Positions 1 through 38,310 of a DNA stretch of 64,000 bases are shown in pieces (position 1 is the first letter of the stretch; every line of letters starts with the position of its first letter). Position numbers and translations under genes: made by a program. Origin of the DNA: Convolutriloba macropyga (lineage: Eukaryota); contig NC_134468.1 in assembly GCF_964194025.1 (NCBI RefSeq), positions 78,678,001 to 78,742,000 on the forward strand, written 5' to 3'. The notes under the pieces are model-generated. The model was given only the letters and a program-made list of their open reading frames with translations, did no database searches and was not told where the DNA came from.

Positions 1-1569
1 GGAAAAGAACCAAATTAATACTGAACATGAATTATTCCCAACACAAAAGCGAATTATAAACTTGAAACTGTACAAAGATAATAATGGTGAAGAAATTTAA
101 ACTGATGAGAACGGTTGAATAAGTAAATATGGACTCTGATAAAGATTATATCATGGATTGAACATCAAAATTCTCACCCACGTAATATTGGATTAGAAAC
201 CCAAATTAGGGGCCTAGGTTTTCAAAGTCATGAATGACCTTCTGAAAACTCTTCCCAAAAAGGTATTTTTTACACAAAGATTCGGAACATTTGGTAAAAA
301 TAGGACTAAACTATCATAACCAAACATAGATAAGCAGTATATATACGGCTCAATTTTAGTCAATTTTTGTAACCAAAAGCAGTCTGAAAATAATTATATT
401 GTCGTAATAATCGAAATTTCGGAGTAAGTTTGATTCGACGGGTGAGTTAACAGATCTCTGTCGTGTTACTGAAAATTGTTTTAATTGTTGGAACTAGTAA
501 ACTCTGGTAACTATACTTTTCGTTAAATTAACTTAGCAAATTTTCCACTACTTTCTCTTTTTAGACATTTTCTTATAACTTAGTAGAGCTTAAACTGGTA
601 TCTAGTGGGTATTTGCTAAACGATTCGATACTTGGCACTCATAGGCATTTGTAACTACTTGTTCTGAAGAAACCGTTAAGATTGGGTAAAACTTAATTGT
701 TTCTTTCGGTTTTCTGTTAATCAACATTGTAATTGTACAACTTTAGTAACTTCACAATACATCTCTAAAGATCTGAAATCATACTCAGTGTAGCTTCAAT
801 TTATTATATATAAATTAGTTTGGCGACTAGTAAAGTAGTGATCAACCAATCAATAATTAGGTTAGGTTAGGTTAACGAGCTGGAGGGCAGCACCGAGTCC
901 AGGACAACATCAAGACAATTGATTTCTGAGAGTATTAATTGGCCAAGCTCCTTCCAGGAGACCGCATAGTGGAGCCACTCTGAGGGTAGGCCTGCTTGCT
1001 CGTAGAAGACTTGGCAAGTTAAGTTAACCCATGTAGTATAGAATGATGAACCAAGTAGACAATTGAAACGGTCTGCAGTAACCTGAAGTACCTGACGGGC
1101 AAGTTCTTAACGTTCTAGCAAGTTGGTTAATACTCGTCTGGTTGGGTTGTGGAGTGAACACCGACGAGCTCTTCACGTCATCTACTATTTGTTTTAAGTA
1201 TATTGGTTGATCGATTGATTAGAAAGTGAATTGAGGACCTGGTATAATTCTCAATCTTAGAGACACCAAATTATTTCATTTGGTAAAACACTTCTTAGAA
1301 GCTAAAATATCATACAACAGAGAGAGGCATTACAAACACATTCTAATATCATCATTATTATTGGCAATTGACTACAGTTCTACAGCGCCTGAAATTATTT
1401 TCTTTAGGACTTGAACGGAGGACCTTGTATAACCCTTTAGTCTGGTTAAGAGTAGTAGGTTTGTGAAGTTACTATCCAGTCCAGTAGTTTTCTCTAAAGA
1501 TAGTTTCTAGGAACAATTGTGGAATTGTGAATAGGGTAAAACCTCCACCCTAAATATTCAGATTCTATA
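1..1569 (+). repeat. 5' LTR (first ~34 bp outside window)
   Basis: Colinear with 9426-11014 (about 10 mismatches counted in the first 240 bp); ends GATTCTATA just before the PBS. Confidence 0.95.
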
Positions 1570-1570
1570 T

Positions 1571-1588
1571 TGGCGACCATAGAGGGAT
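1571..1588 (+). promoter_or_regulatory. Primer-binding site, tRNA-Arg type
   Basis: TGGCGACCATAGAGGGAT 1 nt after the LTR; resembles the complement of the tRNA-Arg(TCG) 3' end (TGGCGACCACGAAGGGAC). Confidence 0.75.
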
Positions 1589-1764
1589 TCTTCTGATTAG
1601 AAGGCAGTTTTGCATTTTACAAAAAAAAAGAAAAAAAACGCAAAATTAGAATTTGAGAGAACCGATAAATTAGGTCTTTGGAATACGTTCCAAAGGTAAA
1701 ACTCATCTATTTATTTTTTCCGGGTCATTTGGTTTTACATCGAAAATGACTTCAATTATCAATA

Positions 1765-2830
1765 ATGAACAACGCACCAAACAACCAGCAACAGCAACAA
1801 CAGAACCAGGCGAGCAATCAGCAACAAATATTCCTGGCACCACTCCTTCTCACCCCTCTCCGATACCCTAGCCGCGACTTCGAGTTTCAAAAGATGGGTT
1901 CGACACTTCGAATCCATGTCAAATGCCAATAATTGGGATAACCAGAAACAACGCGAGGTCCTACCCACGTGTTTGAACAGTTATGCGTTAGATGAGTATT
2001 ACAATCTCCCCAATCATTACTTTCAACAAGTGCAAGGACAACCAGCCCCGACCATAGCGAGAGTTCTGAACGCTCTTAACAACAGAATCGGCGACTTTCC
2101 GAACGCAAGGAGTGCCCGCATCGAATTCAAAAATTTTCAGCAATTGGAATTAGAGTCAATCCAAGAGTTCTCAAGGCGAGTTCGTAGGTTAGGAGAGGCA
2201 GCCAATGCTCGTCTTGATGTTGCGGAACGACAGGGAGCTAACAAAGATGCCTTTATGGACGGACTGTTGGACAGCGAAATCAGATATACACTCCTGAAGG
2301 AAGAACCGGGAAGCTTCAATGCAGCTAAACAACGGGCCATTGCTTTAGACGCCATCAGTAAAGCGGAATCCAGTCGACTGCGAGAACGAGGAAACGGATA
2401 TGTGAGATGGTCAAAGGGTGAAAAAGATCATGATGAGTCAGTAACAGCTGACTTTAGAGCACTCAACACCAGTCTGTCATCGGGTTTCAAACAAATGATC
2501 GAGTTTCAGACCAGAAGCCTCAATAAGATGCTAGAGCAGCAAGAGCGACATACACGGATCATGGAGAAGATTCCTGACACCCACACAAGATTTCTATCCG
2601 AATCAAGTCAACCAAGATTTCAGAGTAGAAGTCCGGGAAGACCGGAAGGCTTTCGACCCATAGCGTCTGCGATGCAGCGCTATAATTGACGCCAGTTTGG
2701 GCACTTGTCAAATCAATGTCCACAGAAAGGAACAATACAACCGGGTATATCCGCAAACTTGGACACCGATATACAACCAATCGTAAAAAGAATTTTACTG
2801 AGAGCGAACTCAGAGCAAGTGAGCAGTACC
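1765..2830 (+). pseudogene. gag: gag (frameshifted), capsid-like region plus degenerate CCHC knuckle
   Basis: ATG 1765 (MNNAPNNQQQQ...), frameshift into ORF 1916-2689 (FKNFQQLELESIQEFSRRVRRL...FMDGL); RYN*RQFGHLSNQC at ~2678-2719 is a mutated Cx2Cx4Hx4C. Confidence 0.85.
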
Positions 2831-5800
2831 AACAAAGTTCAAAGTTTTCAGTCTTTGGACCTACAGTCTACGTGATGGTTGATCTTGACGGACAAAAACA
2901 CAAAACGTTAGTTTTACTCAAAAAAGCTTACTCACAGTACGAACAGCGTTCCAAACTCAGACCTTTCCGAGAACGAGTTCTTTCGGCCACCGTTGATCCT
3001 TTTGAAGTACTTGGCATTTTTACTGGCGAACTAACGTTCGACACCGGGGTTAAAGTGAAAGCCGATCTCTTGGTGACCCCAAACACAGACGTGCTTTTGA
3101 TATTGGAACCCAGGTGATGGAGGAGAATAAAGTATCAATCGACTTCCTTTCTAAGCAGCTGATGATGGAAAAAGAAACCAATGTTGTAAATTTGCAATTT
3201 GCCTATAAACCTGAAGTACCCAGGCACGTACATCTTTGTGAGACGGCAGCAGAATCTGGTCTTGATCAAATCGAAAAAACGGAATAATACAGCACGGGTT
3301 AACCGCAGAAACAAACCCAACTATCATGCGATGAAGAGTTGGAACAGATTTGTTCTTTAGCCATTCCAGACAGAAACGAACAAACAGACGACAGAAGAAG
3401 ACTGCTACGAGAGTTGAGAGATGTGTTTGCAATGAACGACAACGAACTTGGACAGACACACTTGGTTCAGCATGAAATTGACACAGGTGATACGCTGCCC
3501 ATCAAGCTTGCACCCCATAGACTTGCACCTGGAAAGATCACTGTGGTTAAGAAGGAGATTGAGGACATGCTGGTACGAAACATTATCCGACCTTCAAACA
3601 GCCCGTACAGTGCACCAATCGTTCTCGTTACCAAAAAGGATGGGAGCAATCGAACGTGCACAGACTTCAGACGATTAAACGAAGTAACAAAAAAGACGCT
3701 TTTCTACTTCCGCGAATTGACCAGATACTAGATCATCTTCACGGAGCAACGATTTTCTCAAAGGTATTGGCAAGCTCAATTAGCTGAGAGTGCTATACCA
3801 AAAACTGCGTTCGTCACTCCCAATTGTGGAAACTACGAGTACCTCAGACTTCCATTTGGACTTTGCAATGCACCGGCAACCTTCCAACGACTTATGACAA
3901 GCATCTTCAATGAATATCTCTTCTCGTTTGTCCTCATCTTCTTGGACGACGTTCTGATGTTTAGTAGGAATGTGGAGGAACACGAAAAACACATGCGTCT
4001 CGTTTTTCACGCTATTTGCCAGGCCAATCATAAATTCAAACCCAAGAAATGTCGCCTCTTTCAAGAATCCGTAACCTATCTAGGATACAAACTGAGCCCA
4101 GAGGGAGTTGCACCAGATGAAAACAAACTCGTTGCAGTACAGGACTGAAAGCGACCAGAAAACGTTACCGAAGTGAGGTCTTTTTTTGGATTTTGCAGTT
4201 ACTACAGACGTTTCATCAAAGACTTTGCTGGGATAGCGAAACCTCTTCACCAGATAACAAAAAAGAACAGCCGTTTCACTTGGAACCCTGATTGCCATAA
4301 TGCGTTCGAGAAACTGAAAGAGGCTTTGATTGATAACTCAGTGCTCAAGCATCAGGACTACAACTCTCCTTTTATCGTGGACACGGATGCAAGTGACAAC
4401 AGTCTAGGGGCAGTACTCTCGAATATTGTCGATGGAGTAAAATACCCAGTGGCTTTCGCGAGCAGAGTTTTGACGCCAGCAGAATGTCGTTACTCAAAAA
4501 CAAAAAGAGAAGCATAAGCAGTCATTCAAGTGATGAAATGGTTTAAGCCTTACATTTGGGGAACTCAATTTTTGCTCAGAACAGATCATTCATCGCTACA
4601 GTGGTTATTTAGACAAAACAATGACGGATGATATTCAGGATGCTTCAAAGACCGCAAGAATTCGATTTTCAAGTAGTATATAGACCAGGAGACAAGCACG
4701 GGAATGCAGATGGACTGTCAAGACAGTGCAGCATCACACTTGAGCCAACTGAAGCTGAGAGACTGGTTATGTTTGGAAGTTGCCCGTCCGCTAACTCTTT
4801 GGAAGACGCCCTCGGAAGAATTAACTTAGTTACAGCCGAGGACGCGAACGAGCCAATGAGTATCCAATTTCAAGATGACGTAAATTCACTTAGGCTGGCT
4901 CAAAGAAACGATCCCTGCTTACGTCTCTTCTTGCAATGGGCAAACGCTGAGAAACATCCAGACCAAAATTCGCTGAGAGACTTAAAAATCAAGAAGGCAA
5001 ACGCAATAGCACAAGGAGAAGATGCAGTAGCGATGTGGGGCCTCTGTGACCAGATGGAGCTGACTGACGGCGTGCTGTACAGAAAGTGGCATGTGGAAGG
5101 AAGCAATACAACCCAAAAACAACTAGTAGTACCGCAGGGACTCAGAGAGACAGTTTTGGAACAGCTTCACGATTCAAAACTCAATGGAGGCTATTATGCT
5201 ATTCAAAAGACCTCGGACAGGGCAAGACAGAGGTTTTGGTGGCCAAATATGAGAAAAGCCATTGATCGAAAATGTAAGAACTACACCCTTTGTCAAGCAC
5301 GAAGTACCGCTGGAAAGAAAAAAATAGCCCCTCTCCAGACAATCAACAATGGATCCGATTCAGCAAAGTGGCAGCAGATATCCTGGGACCTGCTACCCGA
5401 GCAAGGACAAGCGGTGCAAAATACATGCTCGTATGGACGGACTATTTCACGAAATACGTGGTTTGCGTTCCCTTAGAAAGAACTACGGCCGAAGATGTTG
5501 CTAGAGCAATTGTGGAGAACTGGGTTTTGACATTTGGAGCACCTGATTGCCTTCACACCGATCAAGGACCAAACTTCTGCAGCGAACTACTACTAGAAGT
5601 GTGCAACATTTTTGGAATAGAGAAGACAAGAACATCTCCATATCACCCGCAGGGAAAAGGTAGAACGTCACAACAGAGTTGTTGCGGATGTTACTTCCAA
5701 ATACTGCGCAAACAATCCAAGTAGCTGGGATCAAATGATTCCCTCTCTCAACTTCGTCTATAATACGATTGTACACAAAACAACAGGACAGACTCCATTC

Positions 5801-6700
5801 TCACTTGTGTTTGGACAAGAATGCAAATACCCGATTGACCTTCTTCTCCCGAAAGCACCTGGTCAAGAAATTGACAACTACGAATTCACAAGATGGCTCA
5901 ATGAACAGTTCGGGGAAGCACATATAAATGCCAGAGAGACACTTGGCTACAAACAAAGAAGACAAAAAGAATTGTACAAGAAAAACGTCTTCGGAGAGGA
6001 ACTAAAGCCAGGAGAGAAAGTTTGGCTTTTTGCACCCCAAAAAACAAAATCAAGAAAGTTTTTTCTTCCCTGGATCGGACCATATAACATCATTGAAAGG
6101 ACCTCAGAAGTCAACTATAAAATCTCAAAAGACACAAACTCCAAGAAATGGCAGATAGTCCACTACAATCGATTGAAGACTGTGAAGGAGGAAGACGAGT
6201 TACCCAGAATGGAAACAAGATCATCTCATCAGGAGAAATGGCCCAGCCGCCAAAATACGTATGACCAGGAAGTTCATATTGAAGAAAACATTAAAACTTT
6301 CACCCCAGAAATTACATCAAGACGGCCCAAACAAGAGAGTCCCTTCAAATGGATGGACGAGGATGAAGAATTTTTCTCCGATCTCTTTGCAGAGCGAGAA
6401 CATTCAACTAAAAGGCCCACTAAGACTAACATACCAGCAGAACCGATCACTCCGGAACAAGACAAAACCCAAGCGAACCAGACCCCTTTTGTAACCCCAG
6501 CCAAAGAGACTGACTCTACACCACTGCACCAAAGACCACACAAGCCAAAAAACGTCTTGAGGGACCTCAGTGAAACACAGTCAACACGCGCCAAGAGGCT
6601 CAACATTTGCAGAACTCTTGGGAACCAAAACTGACGAAACAGTAAACTCCATCGCTAAAGCACGAGAAAGACGAGCAGTGAAGTACCCAAAAGGATTCGG
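2830..6700 (+). pseudogene. pol: pol: protease (catalytic DTG apparently deleted), RT, RNase H, integrase, low-complexity tail
   Basis: IRPSNSPYSAPIVLVTKKDG, FGLCNAPATFQ, FLDDVL, YLGY, FFGFCSYYRRFIKDFA, DTDAS, PVAFASR, HGNADGLSR, DYFTKY, HTDQGPNF, TSPYHPQG, WIGPY. Confidence 0.95.
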
Positions 6701-7188
6701 AATCNNNNNNNNNNNNNNNNNNNNNNNNNNNNNNNNNNNNNNNNNNNNNNNNNNNNNNNNNNNNNNNNNNNNNNNNNNNNNNNNNNNNNNNNNNNNNNNN
6801 NNNNNNNNNNNNNNNNNNNNNNNNNNNNNNNNNNNNNNNNNNNNNNNNNNNNNNNNNNNNNNNNNNNNNNNNNNNNNNNNNNNNNNNNNNNNNNNNNNNN
6901 NNNNNNNNNNNNTTCTCTATATAGCATTGCTTAAAAAAATTGTTAAGATCAAAAGATTAGCCGAAATTTTTATTAAAGATGGGGACGATCGTAAAATATA
7001 ATTAAATAGCACCATTAAAAAAAAACTATATTGTAAGATAATATATCACCGGTATTAGGAAAAGAGCTAATTAGCGGAAATAAAATTCAGAGAATTTGGG
7101 GGTAATTATTAGAGAATGTAGCATTCTTTCTAATACAGAAAAAATGCTACCTAGGTTTAGCGCTGTAATTAACCATAATAATGTTTAG

Positions 7189-9340
7189 ATGTACAACTTT
7201 GTGATATTTGTGATATTTATATTAATACTTGCGGTACGAGAGCAAACAGCCGAGATTGCACACACTACTGCGCATGTTCTCTTTCAACCTCAAACTTCAG
7301 TTTCAATAGCCGACTCATATCTGACTGTGGAATCGCAGTCCCACTTCAAAAGCTGTTGAACGTGGATCTCCGATCAATTTATAAATTTTCGTCAACACTT
7401 CAGCAATTGGAACAGAAAACGTGGAAAATCTCCGCGTTTTGCAACAACCCAGCAATAAGCGCACTATTACAGCACCACTTTGACGGAATAATCTCATCTA
7501 TTCAGATAGAATACGAAAGAGCAGAGAAAGAGAGGACAAAGCTCGTCAAAGAAGTAGCATCTTTTGTAAGCCAGACTATCACTCTTCAGCGACAGAGACG
7601 ATCACCACTGCTGTCTGCAATGGGAGTTTCGACGGCGATAACTTTAGAACCCTTACTGGAAAAAAACAGGGTGTAGACTACTCTCAATTTCTGGTCTGTG
7701 CGAAAGTTCTTAGCGAAAGATGGAACAATTGGAAGGACAATTGCACTATTTGGAATTAAGAATTGTTCACCTGCACAACGAAGAAAGAGAGTCTATTCAG
7801 GTCATGGCCAGCAGTAGTTTGAAGCTTCATGAAGACAAACGAAAAGTGCTAAACTACTCAGAGGATAACTTTGAGATTCTGCAAACAAACCTGGTGGTGC
7901 TTCAAAAAACAATGGAAAAAAATATAACAAGCCCAAGCCTGTGATCATCGAAGGTCTGATGTTTTTTATGTATGCCTTTCGCGCCCAAAGTGCATTTAAC
8001 AACAACGTATCATGGACTCTCAATGCTATGCACAGCGAGTTGCATGTACAAACACTATATTTGACGGAACAGAGAAACATATTTATTACAAGCATTGGAG
8101 TGCTATCCAAGGGAATACTGCCAGCCACACTAGTAGCCTACGAGGATTTACGGAAAATAATTACAACCCTGAGGCTTGAAGATAAAAAATTTTCAATTCC
8201 ATACGACCACTCCAGTTTACTTTACAGCCTGCCCTTAGTGAGAAATGTTTCTTCCAATCCACACGGACTGTTAATCACAATGGAGGTGCCAGTATACAGT
8301 GGTGAACCAATTCACGATGCCTACAAAGTAATTCCTCTGCCACAACCAATCAAGAACACAACGACGGCCGCAACTCTAAACTTAGAAAGGAACTATTGCA
8401 TCGTATCAAGGCGAGAAAAAATCTATGCCGAAATGAAGAGTGAGGAATATCTGCCTTGTTTGGGGACACAATTGCTGATACTTTGCACCAAGCCATTAGC
8501 GTTGGTGAGCGCGCAAGAACAACTCTGCTTGACTTCACTCCTATACAATCACAAGGTAGCTGCTTTGAAGACTTAGACACGAGAAGTAACGGAATTGCCA
8601 CAATTTCACTGACAGCAATCTACCTTGGGAACTCTATGTACCTCCTCAAAGCGGCAGACGATCAACAATTTCTTTATAACATAACGTACAGTGGGGGAAG
8701 AAAGTTTTCAAACCCTGTACCAGCCTGTAAAAGTTGCCTAGTACATCCCCCTTGCGATAGAAAACTGGTTCACCCGAAGATTGGACTGGTCATGTTGCCC
8801 GATCCTGCATATTGTCTTCAATACAGTGGGCTAATAAAAACAATCACAATTCTCGAACTACTGGATACCGCTTTCAACATCCCGAGCATTCCAGCGGTCA
8901 CTCCTACAGAAGAGAGTCGGAATTTGATGTTGCATAAGATCAGATCGGCACTCAAGGATGTCCCTACGCTTGATGTCACGCCTGAATTAGTCAGTGAGAT
9001 GGTAGACAAAATCGATCAACAACTCTCTGAGGAAAACAACTTCAAATCCTTTTGCCATGGGTCAACACTGCATACATTTAAAGAGCTGGCGGGTCTGCTA
9101 GGTTTCTCTCTATGGCGTCTTGCATTTGTCCTTTTGGTTGTCTGGGCAGCGAATAAGTGTTACAAGTCCAGAAGCACTACAAAACATATTCACAATTTGT
9201 CCAACGATGATCAACGAGATATCGGAACTGATAAGCAGTTTGAACAGAGACTGAACCTAGTTGAGAGAATGCGAAACGAGGAGACTAACGCTGATTTAAA
9301 AAAACTGATGGTGCATTTATATACTTTTACGTTATACTAA
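7189..9340 (+). pseudogene. env: env-like class I fusion glycoprotein (baculovirus F / errantivirus env-like), fragmented
   Basis: Signal-like MYNFVIFVIFILILAV at 7189; RQRR (7590-7601) followed by hydrophobic SPLLSAMGVSTAITL; heptad-like 7720-7944; LPATL..LYSLPLV..MEVPV..YKVIPLP..C..C..C; TM LAGLLGFSLWRLAFVLLVVWAA ~9085-9150. Confidence 0.8.
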
Positions 9341-9379
9341 TTTCACTGTATTGTACTATTCAGGAGAATAGTTTAGTCC

Positions 9380-9391
9380 GGATGGGTGGGA
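9380..9391 (+). promoter_or_regulatory. Polypurine tract
   Basis: GGATGGGTGGGA immediately before the TG that starts the 3' LTR. Confidence 0.75.
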
Positions 9392-11014
9392 TGTAGGAAT
9401 GGAAAGTTTAACTTAAGCGTTTTTTGGAAAAGAACCAAATTGATACTGAACTTGAATTATTCCCAACACAAAAGCGAATTCTAAATTTGAAACTGTACAA
9501 AGATAATAATGGTGAAGAAATTTAAACTGATGAGAACGGTTGAATAAGTAAATATGGACTCTAATAAAGATTATATCATAGATTGAACATCAAAATTCTC
9601 ACCCACGTAATATTGGATTAGAAACCCAAATTAGGGCCCTAGGTTATCAAAGTCACGAATGAACTTCTGAAAACTTTTCCCAAAAAGGTATTTTTCACAC
9701 AAAGGTTCGGAAAATTTGGTAAAAATAGGACTAAACTATCAAAACCAAACATAGATAAGCAGTATATATACGGCTCAATTTTAGCCAATTTTTGTAACCA
9801 AAAGCAGTCTGAAAATAATTAAATTGTCGTGATAATCGAAATTGCGGAGTAAATTTGATTCGACGAGTGAGTTAACAGATCTCTGTCGTGGTACTGAAAA
9901 TTGTAATGATTTTTGGAACTAGTATACTCTGGTAACTATACTTTTCGTTAAATTAACTTAGCAAATTTTCCACTACTTTCTCTTTTTAGACCTTTTCGTA
10001 TATCTTAGTAGAGCTGAAACTGGTATCTAGTATGTATTTGCATAACGCTTCGATACTTGGCACTCATAGGCGTTTGTAACTAGTTGTTCTGAAGGAACCA
10101 TAGTCTTGTAATAATTAAGATTGGGTAAAAGTTATAGTACTGATAGTTTTTCGGTTTTCTGTTAATCAACAGCGTAATTGTACAACTTTAGTAACTTCAC
10201 AATACATCTCTAAGGATCTGAAATCATACTCAGTCTAGCTTCAATTTATTATTTTTAAATTAGTTTGGTGACTAGTAAAGTAGTGATCAACCAATCAATA
10301 ATTAGGTTAAGTTAAAATAACGAACTAGAGGGCAGCACCGAGTCCAGGACAACATCAAGACGATTGATTTTTGAGAGTATTAATCGGCAAAGCTCCTTCC
10401 AGGAGACCGCATAGTGGAGCCACTCTGAGGGTAGGCCTGCCTGCTCGTAGAAGACTTGGCAGTTTAAGTTAACCCATGTAGTATGGAATGGTGAACCAAG
10501 TAGACAATTAAAACGGTAAGCAGTAACCTGAAGTACCTGATGGGCAATGTCTTAACGTTCTATCAAGTTGGTTAATACTCGTCTGGTTGGGTTGTGGAGT
10601 GAACACCTACGACCTCTTCACGTCATCTACTATTTGTTTTAAGTATATTGGTTGATCGATTAATTAGAAAGTGAATTGTGGACCTGGTATAATTCTCATT
10701 CTTAGAGTCACCAATTTATTTCATTTGGTAAAACACTTCTTAGAAGCTAAAATATCATACAACATAGAGAGGCATTACAAACATATTCTAACATCATCAT
10801 TATTATTGGCAATTGACTACAGTTCTATAGCGCCTGAAAATACTTTCTTTAGGACTTGAACGGAGGGCCTGGTATAACCCTTTAGTCTAGTTAAGAGTAG
10901 TAGTTTTGTGAAATTACTATCCAGGCCAGTAGTTTTCTCTAAAGATAGATTCTAGGAACAATTGTGGAATTGTGAATAGGGTAAAACCTCCAACCTAAAT
11001 ATTTAGATTCTATA
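9392..11014 (+). repeat. 3' LTR (~1623 bp)
   Basis: Starts TGTAGGAAT after the PPT, ends GATTCTATA; matches 1-1569. Confidence 0.95.
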
Positions 11015-11874
11015 TACCTTGTGCCTTTTTTTTGCAAAAGTCTGCACTTTTCTAAAAAATAAACGCAAAGTTCTCCCTAAAAACAAAATCCTATCTTTCC
11101 CAACAAGATAAGTATCATAACAATTTTATGCAGAGAAAAATTTTTCACTCAAGTCGTCGCCATCTCTTTTGTCACTTCTTGCAATTTATGTTAATACAGG
11201 ATACAATTTATGCGTGGACTTTGGTGTAATTGATCCCATTAATTAATTTTTCAACAAAAAGAAAATGTTTTTGTATGCACTATCAACAAACAAAAAATTT
11301 ATCTTCAATTTGAAGAAAACGGGAAGGCAATACACAATACCAATAATAAAAGTGAGGCATCATTTTCATACAAATCGCATACTATTAAATGTGCATGAGG
11401 AATTTTCAAAATTAAGTTATAGATAATAATTTAAAACTCAATTAAAAGCGTCCTGTTTTCTGGAGTGACATCCTTTTTTTTGAGTTTAATCTTCCAGGAT
11501 TGTTTCAGTATTTGGAAGTGAGAATCAGTGGAAAAATGTTGGCACTAAAATTTGGGAAAAAAATTTATTGGTCTTGCATAAAACATTTATCATTCAAAGC
11601 TACTTCAAGAATTCCAGCTATGCCGCAGACGCTCTTCTACAAACCAGATACTTCGCTTCTAGCAAGACTTTTACAAGAACTGTGCGAGGTTATAAAGTTT
11701 TGTAAAGGGGTCTTGCAATAGTTTTTCAGTGAGATAAATCAAGTAGAGAGGTGAAGAGAAATTAACCATGCATTTATCATTTCTCAATTCCCTAAGTAGC
11801 AACCATTGCGATCTTTGATATATATTTTGCTTAATTTCTGCACTGATTGAGGTCACAGAGGTCACAGAAGGCTA

Positions 11875-32517: not shown

Positions 32518-34357
32518 AACGAGCATAGTTAACCATTTCCAGACTCTGTCCCCTGATCAGACTACGCCAGTCCAAAATGAGCTCTGATCAGACCTTTGTG
32601 CGGTCCAGGAAATATTCCAATCTTTGAGGCAAAATGTTTGCGTACTTTGATCTTTGATTAGACCTTTGTGCAACAATTCTGCAAATTATCGGACCGAAAT
32701 TATCGTGTAAACTGGCAGTCAGATAACTACAAAAGAGAAGTATTCTTCAATTTTTAAATGATAAAACTTCATCTAGTTATTCACAAATTTCTCTTTTATT
32801 CACAACTTTGGTAATATTTCTAGGCACACATTCTTACAGTTTGTCCTCCATAAGAAGAGCGGGCCATTTGGTCAAATATTTTCCACTCGCATATTATAAT
32901 ATGTAAAAAAGATTCGTAAATTTATGGTGCTCGATTGTGACTTGATCAGAGCTCTGATACAGTACTGATCCAAGACCTGCAATTCCACTGAATCAGTACT
33001 GATTTAGATTGACCTTAGGTCCGGGACGAGACAACAATTTTTTATTTGCATTTTATTATTATTCGTTTTCTTTTTGTCCCATTTTTGCCAGTTGTCATGC
33101 ATTTAGTGACTTTTTGTGCGTTGTTCACCTGTGAAAAGATTCATAAAAAAGTTCAGGCAGCTGAAAAATTTGCGTAAATTTGGTATAATAAAAAATTTAA
33201 GTGAAGTTGAAAAAATGCAATGATTCTAGCCAACCCGGCTTTCTCTATCCAGGGGTGAGACCCAACAGAGGTCCACATATTCTGCATAGTGGGGTATTCC
33301 AGGTNNNNNNNNNNNNNNNNNNNNNNNNNNNNNNNNNNNNNNNNNNNNNNNNNNNNNNNNNNNNNNNNNNNNNNNNNNNNNNNNNNNNNNNNNNNNNNNN
33401 NNNNNNNNNNNNNNNNNNNNNNNNNNNNNNNNNNNNNNNNNNNNNNNNNNNNNNNNNNNNNNNNNNNNNNNNNNNNNNNNNNNNNNNNNNNNNNNNNNNN
33501 NNNNCGGAACATTGGCCCGTTGATTAGTAATTTTTACAGTTTCAAACCAATGGCTATCTTATCATCCATAAAAATAAGACGGCTACCTCAGATGTTTTCA
33601 ATTTCTGTCAGAAAACAATAAAAAACGAATATGGTTTGCAGCCTTGACATTCCAATATGACACTACATCGAAAATATTCTTTTATTGAAGTAGTTGAACA
33701 GTAGTAGAATAATAACATCTGTTGAATAGCAAAATGAAACGAAACTCGCCTTTGAAGAATCGAGGAGTAATTTTAAAATCGCAAGCAAGAATGAAAACAA
33801 TCAAAACTGAAAAAAGTACAATCATACAAAAATAAGAACTAATTTATTTGATTCACTTCTTTTAAAAAAATTACTTTTAAGAAAATCTAATTGCTCTTCT
33901 TTTCGAAAGCATAGTTTTCTTGATGAAAGAAATGAACACGATAGCAACGAAAGGAAATGCTAAACAAATTTGATGATATGGGATTAGGAAAAAGAGAAGG
34001 TGAAAAATACGCATTAGAAAAAGGAAAATATCATCTTATGGGAAAAGGAAATTTGTTCAATGCAAATAGCACGGACCACAAATAACAATTATTCAAAGAG
34101 TGAATAGTTAATGAAACTCAGTTGCAGCCGCAAAATAGCTTCATGTATAAATAGTTCAGTTCAGGCATTGCCTGGTTGTGTTCAAGCCTTTGAGCTTATT
34201 TTGACGGGAAATGATATTTGTCCTGAGTAGCGTTGCTAATATATTTTTATAAAATTGGTTTGTATCAAGAGGTAAAATTAATTGGCAATTAGACTTAAAA
34301 TCCAGCTCAAACTGATGAAAAATGAAATTAGTTAAATGATTTGGAATCTTTGCGATA

Positions 34358-35858
34358 AAATGATGGACCATGATACTCAAACAGATATGTCGAAAGAAAC
34401 CGTTTCACCTACAAAGTCTCTCGAGGTCGCAATACAAATGGAAATGGAGGCACAAAACCAGCAGAAAATAAATCAATATTTGAATATAGCCTCCACTTCG
34501 GTTAATGGTGTCAACAATTTCCAAACCCGCAATCGCAACGCCAATTACGAACCAACTCGTAAAGACTTCACTCGGTACCCAACTGTCCTGCAAAACTACC
34601 AGTATACAAGCATTTGTGCCAACGATGGACTCACAACCAGCGTCAAATTTGCCCTGCGAATGGAAAAAGTGCAATAATTGTGGTATAACCGGACATTTTG
34701 CGAAGAAATGCAGAAAACCGAAAAAACCACAAAGACAGTCATCTAAAACTCCGCAAAGGAATGCTAACCAAATCGACAACTCTTCTGAAACAAGTGATGA
34801 CGAAGAATCAGTCAATTATAGCACGAGCTGTCAACAACTCTATGGTCAAGTCTATGATTCCAACAATAATAGCGATTCCGATGATTATGTGGCTGCCATC
34901 TCATGTGATTCGGCAAACTAATTTGAACCTTTAAATGCTAAGATACAGTTTCGAAAACACAAGCAAACGCAATGATTGATTCTGGAAGTGTAGTCAGTCT
35001 CATCACCAAAACGCTGGAAAACAGAATACTACGAACTACACCATCTGCAAAATGTGTCACTACAAAACAAAACAAGGACTTGAAAACTTTTTCAAACGAG
35101 CCAATTAAATTGCTTATATAACTCGCAACAATAGTGAAATACAATGACTGACATGCAATGACGCTCATATAACAGTTGTGAACGACGGACATAAGATCAT
35201 CATCGGAAAAGACTTTTTCAACAGTCTTGGCCTCGCAGTTGTTCAACAACAAGAAGGAAACGGTAAATGTGTGAATAATATTAACAATTCTACATGTAAA
35301 ATTAAAGACACAATCGCGTAACAATTTCCCCATTTCGTTTCAAGAATTGGCCTTTCAAAGACACATGTAGCGAAATCCAAATTCATCAAAACTTACAGCA
35401 AAGCAACAAAAGGTCAACGCGTTCAAAAAGAATTACAACCTCAGGTCACGGCGGAATTAGATCGTTTAAACACTGAAGGTCAAATCGAAAACTTGTCTAA
35501 TTGTTCGGACGAACATTTCATATCTCCAATCGTCGTTACAGTATAGAAAAATCAATCTATAAAAATAGACTCTAAAGTGTTAAATAAAGCAATACACAAA
35601 AAATATCAAATTCCCAACATAGACAAGTTAATAGATTCAATCTCACAACACCTCACTAACTCTCAAAACGGTCAACAAGTATATTTTTCAACAATAGATC
35701 TCTAATATGCTTATAGTCATTTACAATTACACAAAGGTACTGCAAAATATTGTAACTTCAAAATCATTTGTGGAAAATCCACTGGAAATTATAGATTCAA
35801 AACGGGATTCTACGGCCTCACTGACATGCCGGCTGAATTCCAAAAAGCCATGGATTAT
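34358..35858 (+). pseudogene. Second Ty3/gypsy-family relic, gag 3' half-PR-RT 5' (plus-strand copy)
   Basis: CNNCGITGHFAKKC knuckle, AMIDSGS protease, FISPIVVT, YRFKTGFYGLTDMPAEFQKAMDY. Confidence 0.85.
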
Positions 35859-36049
35859 GTTTTTCAGCAATAGATCTCAATTACGCTTATAGTCATTTAC
35901 AATTACACAAAGATACTGCAAAACCTTGTAATTTAGACATACAAGTTTATAATCATACACTTGTATGTCTACATTACAAGGTTTTGCAGTATCTTTGTGT
36001 AATTGTAAATGACTATAAGCGTAATTGAGATCTATTGCTGAAAAACATA
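35856..36049. repeat. Near-perfect palindrome, 95-bp arms, 4-nt loop
   Basis: 35856-35950 is the reverse complement of 35955-36049 with 2 mismatches. Confidence 0.9.
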
Positions 36050-38310
36050 CTTGTTGACCGTTTTGAGTGTTGGCGAGGTGTTGTGAGATTGAATCTATTA
36101 GCATGTCTATATTGGGCATTTGATATTTGCTTTTGTGTATTGCTTAATTTAACACTTTACTTTCTAATGCCAAATTTATAGATTGATACTTCTTTACTGT
36201 AATGACGATTGGAGATATGAAATGTTCTTCCGAATAACGAGACAACTTTTCGATGTGACCTTCAGTCTTTAAACGATCTAATTCCGCCGTGACCTAGGTT
36301 GTAAATTTATTGGAACACGTCGACCTTTTGGTGCTTTGCTGTAAACTTTTGATGGAACTTGGATTTCGCTACATGTGTCTTTGAAAGGCCAATCCTTTGA
36401 ACCAAAATGGGGAAATTGATCCGCGATTGTGTCTTTAATTTTACATGTAGAATTATTAATATTATTTACACATTTACCGTTTCCTTCTTGTTGTTGAACA
36501 ACTGCGAGGCCAAGACTGTTGAAAATATCTCTTCCGATGATGATCTTATGTCCGTCGTCCACAACTGTTAGATGAGCGTCATTGCTTGTCCAGTCATTGT
36601 ATGTCACCATTGTTGCGAGTTGTTCAAGCACTTTAATTGGCTCATTTGAAAAATTTTTCAAGTGCTTGTTTTGTTTTGTAGTGACCCAATTTGCAGATAG
36701 TGTAGTTCGTAGTATTCAGTTTGCCAGCGTTTTGGTGATGAGACTGACTACAATTCCAGAATCAATCATTGCATTTGCTCGTACATTTCCAAACTGTTTT
36801 CAGCATTTAAAGTTTCCAGTTGGTTTGCCGAATCAAGAGATGGCAGCCACATCATCATCTGGCTCGCTATGAAAATTGGAGTCATAGGCTTGATCATAGA
36901 GTTGTTGATAGCTCGTGATATAATTGACTGATTCTTCGTCATCACTTGTTTCAGAAAAGTTGTCGATTTGGTTAGCAATTGTTTGCGGAGTTTTAGATGA
37001 TTGTCCTTGTGGTGTTTTCGGTTTTCTGCATTTCTTCTCAAATGTCCGGTTATACAACAATTATTGCACATTTTCCATTCGCAGGGCAAATTTGACGCTG
37101 GTTGTGAGTCCATTGTTGGCACAAATGCTTGTATACTGGTAGTTTTGCGGGACAGTTGGGTACCGAGTGAAGTCTTTACGAGTTGGTTCGTAATTCGCGT
37201 TGCGATTGCGGGTTTGGAAATTATTGACACCATTAACCGAATTGGAGGCTATATTCAAATTTTGATTTTTTTTCTGCTGGTTTTGTGCCTCCATTTCCAT
37301 TTGTATTGCGACCTCGAGAGACTTTGTAGGTGAAACGGTTTCTTTAGACATATCTGTTTGAGTATCATGGTCCATCATGTTAAGTATAATTTTGTCTCTG
37401 ATGAGAGTAGTTTCCTAGTCCCCGAGACTGCAGTTTTCCCCCTGTTCGATTAAGCGACCGTAAAAACTTTCAACGGATTCGCCTTTTTGTTGCTTAGATG
37501 ACCAGAATATCAAGCGATTATACGTGATATTCCTAAATTTAGTGAAGGAATCATTCATCGCCTGTCAAAGTTCCTTGGATGGTTCTTTCTCGATTTGGAA
37601 GTGGGGATGTTTACTTTCAAAGATACGACGTCCTTCTGTTCCGATGCTTAAGTAAAGTAGCGATGCAGATTTCTGCTCGCAATTACCCCAAGGGTTAGCT
37701 CCGCACAAAATGCCAATTTCATCAATCTTTTCACATCAATTTTGCCTATTTACCTTTAACTGCTGATTGCGAACTCTTCGGTCCCTTTCTGTTGCTTGTG
37801 TATGGTTCTCCACAGAGTCCTCGTATGTCGGTCTGGGCGGGTATGTTACTGTAGAAGGTTGTCCACTCAACAGGAGTTCAAGTTGAATCCTTTCTTTCGC
37901 CAATAATGCCAACTTCCATTGTTGCGTCCATTTGTCCCACGAAAACGTTGGAGTGACGGTTGTTTTCTCCCAGATTGCGTCAAAGTGAGGGGGAGTCTTT
38001 CTAGACTCACTAACTGACTGCACCATGTTGTACTTGATTACTTTTGCACAAGTCAATCGAGTAGCCAATGCTTTCCAAACAAATTAGCAAAAGCAATTGC
38101 GGTGCGTTTGCTTATTAACTTTCGGTTCTTTGACTTCTCAATTCGCGAAACTAGTATTTGAGGTGCGAATTGTTCAATACCAAATGGAGCAGACTTAATT
38201 GAAAAGCGATTGACTAAGGTTAAATTAGAAATGAACAATAGCAGTGCAAATCGGAGAATGAAATTAAGATTAAGGTAAAACCGAGATTAAAAGGAAGTAA
38301 AATTATTTCA
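35972..38310 (-). pseudogene. Second Ty3/gypsy-family relic, leader-gag-PR-RT 5' (minus-strand copy)
   Basis: gag from ~38025 (MVQSVSESRKTPPHF..WDKWTQQWKLALLAKE), AMIDSGI protease, MPNIDMLID..FSAIDLNYAYSHLQL; no LTR or PBS recognised. Confidence 0.85.

Follow-up and report, generated by a model that had tools for sequence, protein, structure and literature searches.

A decayed env gene predicted to encode an F-type fusion protein in a Ty3/gypsy retroelement of an acoel

The DNA analysed here, a stretch of 64,000 nt that we call the window, holds a long and fragmented reading frame between the integrase of a broken retroelement and its polypurine tract. An earlier note, made from the letters alone, took this frame for the envelope gene of an errantivirus-like endogenous retrovirus. 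The locus raises the question of whether the frame belongs to the same element as the neighbouring pol, what its product may have been, and whether that product served entry into cells. In our reading, to which we give a probability of approximately 0.85, the region is the decayed env of an acoel Ty3/gypsy retroelement, and its product is a predicted class I (F-type) fusion protein that likely aided particle entry into other host cells.

Element structure and host

The env relic lies in a Ty3/gypsy element of approximately 11 kb with LTRs of approximately 1.6 kb (Table 1). The TG-start, 1.6-kb LTRs described previously were recovered, with both copies beginning in TGTAGG. The pair is 92.7% identical (a divergence of 0.062 substitutions per site), and each LTR terminates in TTCTATA instead of CA (1563–1569 and 11008–11014). 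This TA ending was seen in all window-family copies with a visible end, while sister families carry the canonical CA. The target-site duplication (TSD) of the window copy matches at four of five positions (TACAT/TACCT), and young sister copies have a perfect 5-bp TSD. The paired LTRs, primer-binding site (PBS), polypurine tract (PPT) and short TSD by which a Ty3/gypsy element is recognised are all present.

Table 1. Features of the element in the window.
Feature	Position	Strand	Basis or remark
5' LTR	1..1569	+	LTR comparison; TGTAGG start lies 34 nt upstream of the window; ends TTCTATA
Non-coding LTR block	910..1267	+	~77-84% kept in sister families with saturated pol synonymous sites
Primer-binding site (PBS)	1571..1588	+	complementary to host tRNA-Arg(TCG)
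gag, broken	1765..2845	+	capsid-like PNMA match (Pfam); zinc knuckle intact only in sister copy
pol, broken by several frameshifts/stops	2848..6704	+	protease region, RT (FLDD), RNase H, mini-domain bridge, integrase
Splice-acceptor-like TTTAG	7184..7188	+	immediately upstream of env start codon
Putative F-type env relic, ~700 codons	7189..9295	+	5 frameshifts, 2 in-frame stops relative to sister Env
Furin-type site RQRR (7590-7601) and fusion-peptide-like stretch	7590..7655	+	alignment of relatives
Predicted transmembrane anchor	9077..9154 (about)	+	sister-copy hydropathy mapped onto window
Polypurine tract (PPT)	9380..9391	+	sequence reading, element-end analysis
3' LTR	9392..11014	+	pairs with 5' LTR; starts TGTAGG, ends TTCTATA
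Target-site duplication, 3' copy	11015..11019	+	5-bp; 4/5 match

The genome contains the PBS pattern 57 times, against 0 in the control, and in two overlapping loci with this pattern that were scanned, all 11 of the 11 gene calls were tRNA-Arg(TCG). These genes, the predicted primer of the window family, form a large tandem cluster on contig C1 (20084000-20144000). The conserved non-coding block, compared across three families, is present in both LTRs of the window (910-1267 and 10355-10717). It displays neither an excess of folding (z 0.18) nor codon periodicity, and an Rfam search of window positions 1-11100 returned 0 matches. Elsewhere in the window, a near-perfect 3-kb palindrome (34356-37382) with nested inverted arms of 87-97% complementarity holds gag/zinc-knuckle-like frames from another retroelement.

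In sister copies of the window family, gag and pol form a single frame. Pfam searches of the window returned a PNMA capsid-like match and then reverse transcriptase (RT), RNase H and integrase, arranged as in Ty3/gypsy elements, with H2C2, rve and p58 C-terminus features in the integrase. A protease DTG motif lies upstream of RT in a sister copy and is missing from the window copy. Among solved structures, RT-RNase H is nearest to Ty3 (E = 2.8e-106, versus 7e-58 for the CaMV type and ≥1e-33 for retroviral RT), and a '412'-like Pol is among the nearest named database matches. The RNase H-bridge region was modelled with a pLDDT of 83 overall and of 51-69 in the linker; the model contains one RNase H domain, in which the motif residues are invariant, then helices and three short strands (model residues 239-242, 245-251 and 258-262). 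Neither the duplicated pseudo-RNase H of the insect errantivirus bridge nor the dual RNase H of Lokiretrovirus/Odin (a tether plus a new RNase H) is present in this model, and the predicted bridge fits the 'mini-domain' type, matching ancient errantiviruses.

An N run of 208 nt (6705-6912) separates pol from env in the window, and it could be argued that the two come from different loci that were artificially joined there, an artefact against which the earlier note had cautioned. However, in 19 of the 19 sister loci examined, the sequences that flank the N run follow each other colinearly at a distance of 40-271 nt, with no N between them. Five of five long copies of the window's family (family A) align over the whole element at ~90% with these flanks joined, and a single LTR pair with its TSD encloses both genes. 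Because sister loci join the flanks colinearly, pol and env belong to one element; the different-loci reading is refuted at the family level, and its probability is negligible. With LTRs, PBS, PPT, TSD, gag-pol domains and an env linked to pol, the envelope-bearing Ty3/gypsy element that had been claimed is upheld, and its backbone is confirmed as Ty3/gypsy (Metaviridae).

The suggestion that the host may not be an insect was also correct. The COX1 of this genome is 92% identical to that of Symsagittifera roscoffensis and 75% to that of another acoel, compared to 65-68% for echinoderms, arthropods and molluscs. The S. roscoffensis spliced-leader sequence, as given in the accessible part of PMC9911081, occurs in 2,173 copies in the assembly (control 0). 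Together, the COX1 identity and the spliced-leader copies place the host as an acoel close to S. roscoffensis. Nuclear COX1-like pieces on contig C13 were left out of this placement, being merely 72% identical to the mitochondrial copy. LTR elements make up approximately half the genome of S. roscoffensis, and a full-text search of two acoel genome papers found no mention of an envelope.

The env relic and its predicted fold

Unbroken env copies, for which the earlier note had suggested a search, were found in the genome, including a natural, unbroken sister Env of 697 aa. Measured against it, the fragmented ~700-codon ORF has frameshifts near 7330, 7655, 7925, 7965 and 8600 and in-frame stops at 7711 and 8574. 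Seven stop-free pieces, 75-100% identical to the sister Env, cover its residues 1-457 and 470-697, minus a few residues at the breaks; the last frame extends to 9340, beyond the end of the sister copies at ~9295. With both gag-pol and env broken, the window copy is dead.

The features attributed previously to the relic were recovered. A hydrophobic N-terminus, assigned as a signal peptide by eye, begins at 7189. RQRR at 7590-7601 is followed by SPLLSAMGVSTAITL, and downstream of this fusion-peptide-like stretch are a long helical region, a Cys-rich part of the ectodomain, a transmembrane (TM) anchor and a tail. The motif R-x-[RK]-R is present in 32 of the 44 aligned rows spanning the furin site, and 11 of the 12 cysteines in the ectodomain are shared by 86-100% of the non-gap rows.

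None of the window's own env fragments matched a fusogen family in Pfam (0/5). Because the window copy is broken, fusogen homology was read from the unbroken sister copy. Baculo_F matched both of the unbroken natural sister copies searched (E = 3.7e-4 and 6.2e-5), with scores of 19.7 and 22.2 bits that lie below the Pfam cut-off of 24.1 bits, and the same two copies matched the PDB entries 9w4c/9w4d, 'fusion protein' (E = 0.005). A representative search gave 329 relatives with E values of 0.001 or below, of which the ten looked up were without names. Within an alignment of 56 natural Env sequences, 11 matched Baculo_F (best E = 4.7e-10), and the profile made from that alignment matched 9w4c/9w4d at E about 1e-10 (6e-11 for 9w4d). 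Profile matches to spike and haemagglutinin proteins (E 1e-4 or weaker) were set aside, as they covered only heptad or TM-like stretches.

An AlphaFold monomer model of the unbroken sister Env had a pLDDT of 79.6 and a pTM of 0.69, with low confidence at residues 132-196, around the fusion peptide. The best 40 PDB matches listed by Foldseek were all pneumo-/paramyxovirus F proteins (best E = 3.7e-8). Alignment to hMPV F gave a Z of 10.1 over 360 residues at a high rmsd of 6.7 Å, and TM-scores were modest (0.2-0.5). A BFVD search with the model returned baculovirus F and other viral glycoproteins, and the matches listed in the structure searches included no gB-type fold. In both its sequence and its predicted fold, the window-family Env is a putative class I, F-type fusogen, in line with the earlier proposal, and by analogy it would have fusion activity.

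Family history, env expression and selection

A search of the genome for env gave at least 151 matches (150 of 1,241 candidates scored), and an exact-pattern count found 74 window-family env starts. The LTR pairs of five long sister copies differ by 0.003-0.022 substitutions per site (5/5), versus 0.062 in the window, so that the window copy is an older member, now dead, of a family with recent activity. Of the earlier description, a formerly infectious lineage, 'formerly' holds for the window copy, but not for the family, which has young copies and several open env frames. In total, at least seven related F-env families were found, namely family A and at least six more, the latter from another search, in which 150 of 1,339 candidates were scored, and from fetched regions. 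Their env frames span ~695-804 codons, and their LTR pairs are 99-99.8% identical in most copies fetched, with two at 95-96%. Two side observations concern the organisation of these families. The D families (L053-L064) have gag and pol in different frames, unlike families A-C, and in the three of them where a primer site was found, it differs from that of families A-C. Furthermore, contig C2 (17258000-17282999) carries a tandem array of at least four near-identical sister-family units (L050-L052) at 11.89-kb spacing and 99.9% identity. In these units, a 2.25-kb internal deletion joins pol (to residue 1006) to env (from residue 277) in one 1,513-codon frame that is without the integrase core, signal peptide, furin site and fusion peptide.

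Env adjoins pol in all seven families examined, and the identities of the two drop jointly: between A and B, pol is 73% and env 34% identical, and between A and D, 52-57% and 26-29%, respectively. Quick IQ-TREE trees with SH-aLRT support only (RT, 59 of 60 rows with P0299 dropped, built without errantivirus reference sequences; env, 34 rows) both split families A/B/C from four D families. They conflict on whether family B groups with A or with C. In the env tree, all eight rows of the host genome fall in one clade of ten (SH-aLRT 99). Two copies (L035 and L036) have family-A-like LTRs and pol (dS 0.13-0.33) together with an env of only 62-69% amino acid identity and saturated synonymous sites, which suggests that env was swapped by recombination.

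In the window and in 21 of 21 family copies, the env ATG is immediately preceded by AG. TTAG occurs 0-18 nt upstream of the env ATG in seven of eight families, which are related yet saturated at synonymous sites, with a chance expectation of 0.07-0.15 each; family A2 has TAAG before its env ATG and was scored as a miss. This conserved acceptor-like TTAG suggests that the env message is spliced. Within the 420 nt that follow the PBS, six of six family-A copies carry a donor-like AAG|GTAAAA and family B has none, and no splice donor common to the families was found there. Searches for retroposed spliced env copies used four junction patterns, three with the spliced leader joined to env (one for each of three families) and one with the leader donor of family A joined to env, and gave 0 matches for each. 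Since trans-splicing affects 30% of the genes in the related S. roscoffensis (PMC9911081, accessible part), spliced-leader trans-splicing of env is conceivable. The spliced-leader matches listed fall on nearly all large contigs; they are scattered (e.g., L069-L071) and followed by varied bases, and they possibly represent retroposed trans-spliced RNAs or a leader-derived repeat.

It might be proposed that env is a passenger, the family copying itself intracellularly as an ordinary retrotransposon and env no longer serving entry. The derivative in the tandem array, which multiplied without an integrase core or env N-terminus, is consistent with this, and the discussion in the accessible part of PMC13524379 gives the transmission mechanism as unknown beyond Drosophila. 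However, within-family env dN/dS is well below 1, at 0.33-0.51 between the window's env pieces and five sister copies and 0.41 over 97 pairs from 15 family frames. Very young env pairs give ~0.5-0.8, as expected of neutral decay after insertion. Env is thus shown to be under purifying selection within the window family. The furin site, the cysteines and the acceptor-like motif are also kept across families with saturated synonymous sites, and env is retained beside pol in every family examined. We therefore hold the passenger explanation to be improbable.

Acoels possess a digestive syncytium. This, along with the open env frames of several copies, might favour a host-domesticated, syncytin-like fusogen for acoel syncytial tissues. 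Against such domestication, the window's env carries seven disruptions, the open frames belong to young, multi-copy elements and lie between LTRs, and a single old locus with open env and decayed pol was not seen among the loci fetched. Domestication is accordingly very unlikely.

Our preferred reading remains that of a retroelement env whose product likely aided particle entry. By analogy with F proteins already known and with the errantiviruses of insects, a spliced subgenomic RNA that uses the TTAG acceptor ahead of the ATG would serve as the env message, and the Env made from it would enter the secretory path, be cleaved at RQRR and trimerise. Env would then refold, fusing the particle membrane with the target cell. 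The likeliest target would be a stem or germ cell, the site of new heritable insertions. On the same analogy, the window family may have been infectious.

Known relatives and significance

The insect errantiviruses (Drosophila gypsy, ZAM and Idefix) share with the acoel family a Ty3/gypsy backbone and a predicted F-type env, and probably also a spliced env RNA, from which gypsy env is expressed. The LTR of Drosophila gypsy is short and begins with AGT. Unlike the acoel bridge, that of the insect elements has a five-strand pseudo-RNase H; moreover, the hosts differ, and infectivity has been demonstrated for the insect elements only. With baculovirus F and pneumo-/paramyxovirus F, the acoel Env shares a predicted class I fold, a hydrophobic peptide after the furin site, Cys-rich beta domains and a C-terminal TM. 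However, identity in structural alignments is just 9-14%, and the acoel env is encoded by a retroelement. Lokiretroviruses likewise bear a mononegavirus-F-like env (PMC9040795, accessible part), but the Loki/Odin elements have a tether and second RNase H, whereas the acoel model has a single RNase H with a mini domain; the acoel RT is Ty3-like.

A 2026 catalogue by Chary & Hayashi (eLife; PMC13524379) already covers env-F Ty3/gypsy elements outside insects; its accessible part reports 1,512 env-bearing elements across most animal phyla. Several traits that it gives for 'ancient errantiviruses' recur here: gag-pol-env order, an F-type env that carries a furin site and a fusion peptide, multiple copies, a 'mini' domain of a helix and three strands after the RNase H, a tRNA-Arg(UCG/UCU) primer (ten table rows, nine annelid and one springtail) and long LTRs (up to ~1.8 kb in one annelid row). 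In the acoel element, the env ORF sits between pol and the 3' LTR and is linked to pol in multiple copies. The predicted F-type ectodomain includes the furin site and the fusion peptide and lies between the signal peptide (by eye) and the TM, and the modelled RNase H is followed by the helix and three-strand mini-domain bridge. By these features, rather than by placement in a POL tree, the window element fits the 'ancient errantivirus' F-type operational group. The TA-ending LTRs of the window family and the host phylum, Xenacoelomorpha, set it apart. Of the earlier label, errantivirus-like, what stands is the fit to ancient errantiviruses through the mini-domain bridge, and not to classical insect errantiviruses.

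Xenacoelomorpha is absent from the surveyed groups in the accessible part of PMC13524379, and acoel names are absent from its main text and seven supplements. The literature searched held no report of env-bearing elements in acoels. The acoel F-env element is a known kind in a phylum outside the earlier survey. A broader proposal, which we consider rather unlikely, is that acoels carry an old radiation of enveloped endogenous retroviruses of their own, still active, with env swapping, an env message made with the host spliced leader and not a viral donor, and infection of neoblasts or germ cells from neighbouring tissue.

Xenacoelomorpha, early-branching bilaterians omitted from the 2026 survey, joins the hosts of F-env Ty3/gypsy elements, and the acoel elements offer a direct test of the claimed pre-Cambrian association of env with pol. 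This local radiation, in which env and pol mostly co-diverge, with one apparent swap, allows env exchange to be investigated in a single species. Furthermore, a regenerating, stem-cell-rich animal provides a fresh setting for the role of env beyond the insect ovary.
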